Shown: piece after piece, positions 5,805-6,137 of the stretch
How positions within the stretch are numbered: position 1 is the stretch's first letter
Layout: every line of letters begins with the position of its first letter
Virus record (IMG/VR): IMGVR_UViG_2698536647_000005
DNA length: 25,289 nt
Direction: 5' to 3' (one strand)
Source of the DNA: a virus
Lineage: Duplodnaviria; Heunggongvirae; Uroviricota; Caudoviricetes
Translations under genes and position numbers: made by a program
Notes under the pieces: generated by a model
What the model was told of the DNA's origin: nothing
The model's input: only the letters and a program-made list of their open reading frames with translations
Database searches by the model: none

Positions 5805-6137
5805 TTAACTTTCCTCTGCACAAGGTTTTAGTCCATACACGAAGTTAAGGCGGCTGCCACCGCCGAACTTTCTCCATACACAACAGAGAAGGGCACCTGC
5901 ATTGGTCGGCGGCTTGAGAGACCGCTTTCTTTTTGCCCGGGTGGATTGGGTTATGAGCCCGTCGCCCGGTGATGCCCTTTTCTGTTGTGCCCTGAAAAAG
6001 GCTGGCGGTTACCGGAAATACACGGGAAAACACCGGGCCGCCAGAACAGGGAGTTACTTGTTATTGCTTTAGCCTGCTTTTAACCACATCAGGCGCGGTG
6101 GTATCTTGGTGTTCTCACACAACCAAGAGGGATGTTT

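Follow-up and report, generated by a model that had tools for sequence, protein, structure and literature searches.

Processed, structured prophage leaders are a kind of RNA already known from dicBF, the ydfC–dicB region of prophage Qin, where RNase III creates the 5´ end of a 190-nt DicF species (PMC10448788). In phage HK022, the put elements occupy the beginning of the transcript, ahead of the terminators, and each comprises two stem-loops within ~70 nt (PMC9378689). The present analysis concerns positions 5805–6137 of a 25,289-nucleotide (nt) virus stretch, IMG/VR record IMGVR_UViG_2698536647_000005 (hereafter the window, meaning the whole stretch), which is a lambdoid prophage of the ST64B/SfV/mEp460/e14 type. 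This region carries a three-way-junction leader RNA of ~120 nt, module 1 (5868–6000, minus strand, outer helix P0 included), with a copy of the initiator-tRNA anticodon arm at the tip of one of its hairpins.

A three-way junction bearing such a copy appears to be undescribed. No paper containing the core sequence and no description of the element was found in the searchable literature; a preprint on the Pas small RNAs (sRNAs) covers sRNAs of the late region and the structural operon, and not the locus of the module. Rfam 15 has no family for the module, either at gathering score or at E values up to 10, in searches of the window and six homologous loci. The interval 5858–6009 gave only chance-level microRNA and small nucleolar RNA matches, and the homologous regions of loci L001–L006 (compared loci are numbered with L) gave only sub-threshold STnc100 and weak DicF matches, both in neighbouring modules.

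Structure and strand of the leader RNA

The first-pass annotation had described an 18-bp inverted repeat, 5879–5896 with 5975–5992, enclosing about 78 nt. The repeat exists and the enclosed length is nearly the same (77 nt), but its contiguous core is 17 bp long, 5879–5895 paired with 5973–5989, including one G·T pair on the plus strand, and the second arm is shifted by 2–3 nt. In a repeat search, the arms extend to 37 nt each (5859–5895 and 5973–6009) with 76% complementarity, forming the longest inverted repeat with a span of up to 200 nt anywhere in the window. A 17-bp run of Watson–Crick or G·T pairs was reached in two of 1000 shuffles of the region, while the longest perfect Watson–Crick run was uninformative, as 9 bp was reached in 46 of 300 shuffles. 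Folding of both strands gave low energies, with a minimum free energy of −58.0 kcal/mol (z = −5.95) for 5868–6000 on the minus strand and z values of −3.6 (plus) and −2.9 (minus) for the whole region. The inverted repeat is confirmed as real and not a product of chance. The description of the region as GC-rich needs toning down: the enrichment is modest, 0.51–0.56 against ~0.45 in the flanks.

Homologues came from pattern scans covering IMG/VR and a single genome for each species. These yielded 64 distinct sequences (alignment A1), and a covariance model, R1, was built from this alignment. The model scores 97 bits on the window at 5873–5990 (minus strand). These sequences show the repeat to be P1, the helix that closes a conserved RNA with a three-way junction. 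Standard pairs occupy 92.4% of cells, with changes on both sides in 13 pairs and 110 cells, values that none of 500 shuffles matched. Sliding the 3´ partner by one to three columns reduces pairing to 37–53% of cells. RNAalifold independently recovers the same consensus fold, adding pairs 19/97 and 20/96. The long-range pairing seen at first pass is therefore a conserved RNA helix, with compensatory changes across homologous prophages.

P1 joins its 5´ arm in the sense of the RNA (5971–5990, minus strand; the right-hand arm of the annotated repeat) to its 3´ arm (5878–5897, minus strand; the left-hand arm). Its consensus comprises 18–20 bp, with habitual mismatches at columns 7/109 and 11/105; six of its pairs are changed on both sides, and columns 9/107 read G–C in 37 sequences and C–G in 26. 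P2 (5898–5936, minus strand) is a variable hairpin that also covaries: columns 57/91 read G–C 49 times, A–U 10 and U–A 2, and columns 58/90 read G–C 38 times, C–G 7, U–G 4, U–A 2 and A–U 1. In the window, P2 carries a long insertion with an A-rich internal loop. The U-rich run at 5928–5934 that had been pointed out earlier is indeed present, but it falls in this lineage-specific insertion and corresponds to the A-rich loop on the favoured strand.

P3 (5937–5969, minus strand) is made up of a 5-bp base (5937–5941 with 5965–5969), an invariant internal loop and an apical hairpin. Its base covaries at columns 26/50 (G–C 45, A–U 12, G–U 4) and 24/52 (G–C 61, A–U 3). The internal loop sets GAC opposite AAUCC and is followed by GGG/CCC, which closes a 7-nt loop. 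A kissing interaction between P2 and the hairpin downstream of the module was considered and rejected: the downstream loop keeps (U/G)GCAG, and the P2 loops, such as CUUCCUAA, vary without matching it.

The strand had been left undecided at first pass. The evidence favours an RNA read from the minus strand, which is the sense strand of the leftward PL operon, on four grounds. First, P1 contains 40 cells with G·U on the minus strand (A·C on the plus strand) against eight of the reverse kind, seven of which lie at a habitual mismatch. Second, column pair 19/97 is U·G in 57 of the 64 sequences, U–A in four and C–G in three. Third, a G+C-rich hairpin followed by U5–7 stands directly 5´ of P1 on the minus strand in most of 80 distinct aligned homologues, with no U-run on the plus strand at this hairpin in the same alignment. 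Fourth, the core is sense to the following genes in three unrelated contexts, namely early-left leaders, late leaders and an Acidobacteriaceae metagenome-assembled genome (MAG).

The window version of this 5´ hairpin is T2, a terminator-like element (5994–6045, minus strand) in which 6002–6008 pairs with 6039–6045 to form a 7-bp G+C-rich stem around a loop of ~30 nt, directly followed by the U-run CCUUUUUC. The corresponding A5–7 run of the plus strand occurs at this position in most of the 80 homologues. T2 escaped a terminator consensus scan, probably on account of a loop exceeding 8 nt. Its U-run can alternatively pair with GGAGAAAG (5868–5875), forming P0. In relatives, the equivalent of T2, called T1, aligns end to end with DicF and its terminator.

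The earlier statement that the region has no credible open reading frame (ORF) holds: the only ORFs are 5845–6033 on the minus strand (62 aa) and 5902–6072 on the plus strand (56 aa). Insertions and deletions in P2, whose length varies between 15 and 40 nt, are not multiples of three, and changes in the P1 arms are compensated in the opposite arm, outside the conserved part of either ORF; for both reasons, the region is considered non-coding. A protein-coding role (for the hypothetical proteins, mEp460_036 or YmfH, of relatives), a plus-strand RNA or a DNA site acting as a cruciform or in recombination is very improbable. ORFs do overlap the region in many annotations, the plus strand folds well (z = −3.6) and column pair 27/49 favours that strand. 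However, the P2 indels shift the frame, the ORF lengths differ (L001 has ~24 codons, mEp460 47 aa and the window 56 aa), and the compensatory changes tie an arm that lies beyond the ORF to one within it. Moreover, the 40-to-8 G·U bias and the U·G at 19/97 would become A·C mismatches in a plus-strand RNA, and a DNA site predicts no strand bias.

The positions of the surrounding genes and promoter candidate place the module in the leftward early transcript, within the untranslated stretch that immediately precedes rdgC. The first long early gene, rdgC (4887–5804, minus strand), has an ATG that is the reverse complement of 5802–5804. On the same strand lie the S24/helix-turn-helix repressor gene (6778–7497), a PL-like promoter candidate (6672–6643) and a ClpX-type zinc-finger ORF (6168–6551), which is the first ORF after PL and is annotated by RefSeq in L001. 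The location in the leader of the leftward operon, proposed from the first reading, is thereby borne out. In all of the related loci inspected, 500–1000 nt without credible genes separate the repressor and PL from the first early gene.

Invariant core and its likeness to the initiator tRNA

The apical part of P3 holds an invariant 21-nt core, GACGGGCUCAUAACCCAAUCC (5943–5963, minus strand), in which GGG/CCC (5948–5950 and 5958–5960) closes the loop CUCAUAA (5951–5957) with CAU at 5953–5955. Fourteen nucleotides of the core (CGGGCUCAUAACCC) exactly match the E. coli tRNA-fMet anticodon stem-loop, and the mark of an initiator anticodon arm, three consecutive G–C pairs beside a 7-nt CUCAUAA loop, is found here. 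The tRNA-fMet sequence used in this comparison was verified against E. coli genomes: all 5426 carry an annotated tRNA-Met that is 100% identical to it, in a median of four copies.

GGG/CCC is invariant in all 64 aligned sequences. A pattern scan with the loop left free returned 138 loops with a central ATG (CAU on the minus strand), 137 of them in recognisable modules, and CAU is kept in 138 of 138. Written on the minus strand, the loop reads CUCAUAA at 113 loci, CUCAUUC at 12, CUCAUUA at six, CCCAUAA at five and UUCAUAA at two. L020, with the loop CUCAUCA, is probably a chance match in unrelated sequence. Since about four chance matches are expected for a 19-base pattern in the 596-Gb genome collection, noise is the probable explanation for L020, L025 and L036; L021, L022 and L033 fit R1 in structure, fully or in part.

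Models of tRNA detected no cloverleaf in the module. In the window, the Rfam tRNA model matches only 15328–15633, and ARAGORN reported no tRNA or tmRNA in L001–L003. Pairing of the CUCAU loop with the start of the first gene was considered and set aside, as it fits only genes beginning with AUGAG and is not general. In a search of the window, GGGTTATGAG-like targets occur at chance level.

The module is widespread. By BLAST, its 55-nt centre (5935–5989) matches 2831 of 5426 complete E. coli genomes and also occurs in phages of Escherichia, Shigella, Salmonella, Klebsiella and Citrobacter, while Cronobacter and Rac-type phages share only the piece 6072–6125 among the matches listed. Lambdoid prophages that carry it include ST64B, the SfV/SfII/SfIV group, mEp460 and Stx2c phages. 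In genome records, the 55-nt piece is usually unannotated or labelled 'hypothetical protein', and recognition of the module as an RNA would allow many gene calls to be corrected.

One such annotation is ymfH in e14 of E. coli K-12-type genomes (L157 1145–1456), a coding sequence that overlaps a diverged module 1 (78 bits with R1) with the loop UUAAUAA in place of CUCAUAA. The same coding sequence also overlaps a DicF-like unit and an STnc100-like module, and the ORF is probably not a real gene.

The core also recurs within different closing stems (L021, L022 and L160–L173), and these alternative helices covary, again with U·G on the sense strand. The late-leader class (L022 3023–3098, plus strand; L038; L160–L173) has a 7-bp P1, with the closing helix CUGUCU/GGGCAG, and the P2 loop AUUCCUAA; the order in these leaders is a Q-like gene, one or two terminators, the module, and holin-like and lysin genes. 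In the Acidobacteriaceae MAG (L021 2547–2628, minus strand), the exact 21-nt core sits in an unrelated but complementary closing helix, CUCCAAUC/GAUUGGAG, and ends 3 nt before a Shine–Dalgarno sequence, with lysin-like genes in the region. Two further IMG/VR contigs (L159 and L169; GC ~0.57) likewise carry the exact core within unrelated complementary closing helices.

Proposed processing of the leader and possible roles of the core

The closest kinship of this leader is with dicBF. In an E. coli genome whose flanks are 98.8% identical to the window (L001), ~250 additional nucleotides stand at window position 5990 (L001 4184–4430), holding a second module of the P1 type, one that is STnc100-like, and a DicF-like sRNA unit. 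On this comparison of sequences, the window is best read as a variant that has lost all three by deletion between two CACAAC-type repeats; the deletion junction (window 5990/5991) is also present in L070, L146 and L155. The earlier suggestion that small-RNA genes are sited here holds in relatives: in L001, e14 and phiNP, a DicF-like unit stands directly upstream of the module and can be aligned with DicF over its full length, seed and terminator included.

In Qin (L174), an STnc100-like module (GUGGUGAAUGCGGCUGAGCGCACGCGG ... CACCUGGAGGCACCAGGCAC) stands between DicF and dicB, immediately ahead of the latter; the early leaders of ST64B (35 bits) and e14 contain such modules too. Before DicF, Qin has a long helix, L174 2673–2760, with arms resembling P1 (14 bits with R1 at 2673–2763, E = 0.007). 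By our own mapping, 190 nt counted back from the 3´ end of DicF leads to approximately L174 2746, inside the 3´ arm of this helix. Because this P1-like helix coincides with the mapped RNase III cut, P0 and P1 of the module are most likely an RNase III processing helix. Together, the 20 bp of P1 and the 7 bp of P0 would give a helix of ~27 bp with a 3-nt internal loop and a few mismatches, a size in keeping with RNase III processing helices of the dicBF type (~20 bp or more, in a polycistronic leader).

It is proposed that the region is one module of a processed, non-coding early-operon leader of the same kind as the Qin ydfC–dicB region. In relatives, the leader strings together a put-like element, element B (described below), a module resembling STnc100, a DicF-like sRNA together with its terminator, and the module itself. 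Cleavage at the predicted P0+P1 site would cut the early mRNA off from the leader and sRNA part that precede it, and would free the inner junction as a small RNA. That the core tip works by being recognised as an initiator-tRNA anticodon arm is speculative; candidate partners would be the 30S P site with IF3, methionyl-tRNA synthetase (MetRS), or a tRNA-fMet-specific nuclease. A processed leader module with an RNase III helix formed by P0+P1 and a tRNA-like tip recognised as such is the best explanation at hand, and we consider it about evenly poised between being right and being wrong.

Several observations weigh against this explanation. The Qin helix matches R1 weakly and its interior is unrelated to the module, and the RNase III cut, mapped from the 190-nt length, is good to a few nucleotides at best. 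In late leaders and in the Acidobacteriaceae MAG, P1 has only 7–11 bp, which is too short for RNase III, and core function must therefore be independent of such cleavage; nor would RNase III account for a 21-nt core that never varies. Of a full 5-bp anticodon stem, the two lower pairs (27-43 and 28-42) are not reproduced, their equivalents reading A·A and C·A; RNAalifold instead pairs G28–C47 and A29–U46 (alignment columns) across a bulge. Finally, 50 of the 64 sequences have C·A at columns 27/49 of the minus strand, where the plus strand would have U·G; the remaining sequences and L021 have C–G or U–A.

A bolder proposal, possible but doubtful, is that the core defines a widespread family of leader RNAs mistaken for tRNA-fMet, through docking in the P site under IF3, binding by MetRS or service as bait for a nuclease such as VapC. 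If true, this would add a new class of RNA, either a regulator that mimics tRNA or an anti-defence RNA. Among separate roles for the core, cis control of translation ranks first, followed by a nuclease decoy or sensor, then by antitermination, and last by the coding, plus-strand or DNA-site readings discussed above.

Translational control in cis is itself rather unlikely. Such control has a precedent in the E. coli thrS operator, which mimics the anticodon arm of tRNA-Thr. The mimic would engage the 30S P site with IF3, or MetRS, on transcripts that read through the terminator, and would set the translation of the first gene after it. The module is always sited in the 5´ untranslated region, in the same sense as the gene. 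In L021, it ends 3 nt before the Shine–Dalgarno sequence; in late leaders, it lies (by eye) ~45–60 nt before the holin-like start; and in the window, it stands ~65 nt before the rdgC start, with hairpin H2 between them occluding the Shine–Dalgarno sequence. Its invariant features are CAU and three G–C pairs, and these same features are known to matter for P-site and IF3 selection of the initiator. However, the module stands at widely varying distances from the start codon, phages differ in their first gene, and complementarity between the loop and the start region is, by eye, nil beyond AUG.

Less probable again is a decoy in trans. Abundant early (PL) and late (PR´) RNA would offer an anticodon-arm copy to toxins that cleave tRNA-fMet (enteric VapC/MvpT) or to other tRNA-directed nucleases, either protecting the real tRNA or alerting the phage to the attack. 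In Shigella and Salmonella, which host SfV/SfII and ST64B, VapC cuts tRNA-fMet between A38 and C39; this counts for the decoy reading, as does the identity of CGGGCUCAUAACCC with the tRNA-fMet anticodon arm with its invariant CAU and three G–C pairs. The recurrence of the core in early and late leaders and across phyla, within different surrounding helices, agrees with it as well, and the second module of some relatives has two T-arm-like hairpins (GGUUCGAUUCC) on the same strand (20 sense against 3 antisense). On the other hand, positions 37/38 beside the VapC cut site vary (CUCAUUC at 12 loci, CUCAUUA at six), the fixed site just upstream of the first gene of the operon looks more cis-acting, and the conserved flanks GAC and AAUCC are not tRNA-like. 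CAU, GGG/CCC and the GAC/AAUCC loop provide a mutable target for asking why an initiator-tRNA look-alike precedes the first gene of antitermination-dependent operons.

Neighbouring leader elements and comparison with known systems

The first-pass annotation had also drawn attention to the place where lambdoid phages carry nutL or put-type elements. For the module, such an identity is not supported, given its wrong position, different architecture and lack of an HK022 match. HK022 put RNA suppresses termination in cis by way of the zinc-binding domain of the RNA polymerase β´ subunit; that the module likewise confers terminator resistance on RNA polymerase seems distinctly improbable. In favour of such a role, the first ORF after PL matches only the ClpX-type zinc finger (the rest of the operon was not searched for N), the module is a conserved structured RNA, and the core also occurs in late leaders that depend on antitermination. 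Against this, the module lies ~650 nt from the PL candidate and downstream, rather than upstream, of the terminator-like hairpin T2; its architecture is unlike that of put, R1 has no match in the HK022 immunity loci (L007 and L008), and Rfam offers none. No boxB-type hairpin with a purine-rich pentaloop was seen in the module region by eye, no motif search having been run.

The putL position is taken instead by element A (6575–6636, minus strand), a conserved structured RNA that starts ~10 nt after the −10 hexamer of PL. In 51 phage records, ranging from Escherichia to Aeromonas, it follows a wide variety of immunity promoters. Its stems covary (CCGG/CCGG, CCUGG/CCAGG, CCCCA/UGGGG, and GCGAA/UUCGC against ACGAA/UUCGU). 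By eye, element A and both putL and putR of HK022 share CGAAC(A)GGC followed ~48 nt later by GGAUGA, while BLAST of element A against HK022 gave no alignable similarity. By its position and these motifs, element A is a better candidate for a put-type antiterminator than the module.

Element B, CCACCGCGCCUGAUGUGGUUAAAAGCAGGC (6072–6101, minus strand), is a further conserved leader element with a possible H-type pseudoknot (CCAC/GUGG, GCCUG/CAGGC). The surrounding 6072–6125 is the only part of the region shared with Rac and e14 among the BLAST matches listed, and in Flotzy element B directly follows the PL-proximal element. Its antisense, UGCUUUUAACCA, shows what we take to be a loose resemblance to rrn boxA.

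Downstream of the module, hairpin H1 (GGCGG-UGGCAG-CCGCC; 5849–5864, minus strand) represents a hairpin with a (U/G)GCAG loop that follows the module in most homologues. Such loops (5849–5864 and 5813–5825 in the window) recur between the module and the first gene, and often also as the tip of P2; they do not covary with P2 and may be a recognition motif. H2, CCUUGUGCAGAGG (5809–5825, minus strand), overlaps the rdgC Shine–Dalgarno sequence AGAGGAAA and also adjoins the starts of rdgC-like genes in L018, L084 and L095. A leader peptide starting from the (A/G)UG GAG AAA motif 3´ of P1 was considered and rejected, since Klebsiella versions read ACG. In some relatives, the second module contains two hairpins that match the tRNA T-arm consensus GGUUCGAUUCC (L004 1860–1960, L005 1880–2010 and L001 4290–4440; sense is the minus strand), the sense count given above being drawn from 141 distinct leaders.

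Upstream of the region, a small zinc-ribbon ORF (6132–6335, plus strand) has its own plus-strand terminator (6363–6390) and overlaps the ClpX-type zinc-finger ORF on the opposite strand. The true end of the latter is uncertain, as its Pfam match is limited to the first ~50 aa. Elsewhere in the window, STnc100 (Rfam RF02076) has a full match of 53 bits at 15899–16105 (plus strand), after three tRNA genes (15328–15633) and before holin and lysozyme genes, and looks like a short late-promoter transcript. In mEp460 (L002 5594–5782), isrK (67 bits) lies beside a C4 antisense RNA (84 bits) in the rightward region, upstream of a Rha-like gene.

Compared with antitermination elements, the module resembles HK022 putL and putR in being a structured RNA of a lambdoid PL leader with no N gene seen just after PL, but it differs in being a ~120-nt three-way junction that follows a terminator-like hairpin. 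It shares its place in the leftward leader with lambda nutL; unlike nutL, it is preceded by a ClpX-type zinc-finger ORF as the first ORF after PL, and its region showed no boxB-type hairpin by eye.

The thrS operator is likewise a hairpin of an untranslated leader that copies a tRNA anticodon arm, but the module copies the initiator tRNA, and its partner protein is only a candidate. In mascRNA and in the RNase P processing of the C4 RNA of phages P1 and P7, tRNA-like folds mature neighbouring RNAs; unlike these, the module has neither the acceptor/T-arm stack nor the 3´ CCA for RNase P. As with STnc100/PasD (RF02076), it forms part of a set of modules reused in prophage leaders, although its fold and sequence differ and no STnc100 match falls in the region.

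The Qin ydfC–dicB region of E. coli K-12 remains the closest known system. Both are lambdoid early operons with a long non-coding stretch of modules. Qin has an STnc100-like module, a long helix whose arms resemble P1, and a DicF terminator unit, which has a DicF-like counterpart in the relatives of the window. The Qin helix differs in lacking the tRNA-like core, in its unrelated interior and in the order of the modules, and the window itself is without a DicF-like unit. The proposed kinship would carry the dicBF picture, in which small RNAs are cut from the untranslated region of an early operon, over to a far wider set of lambdoid prophages.

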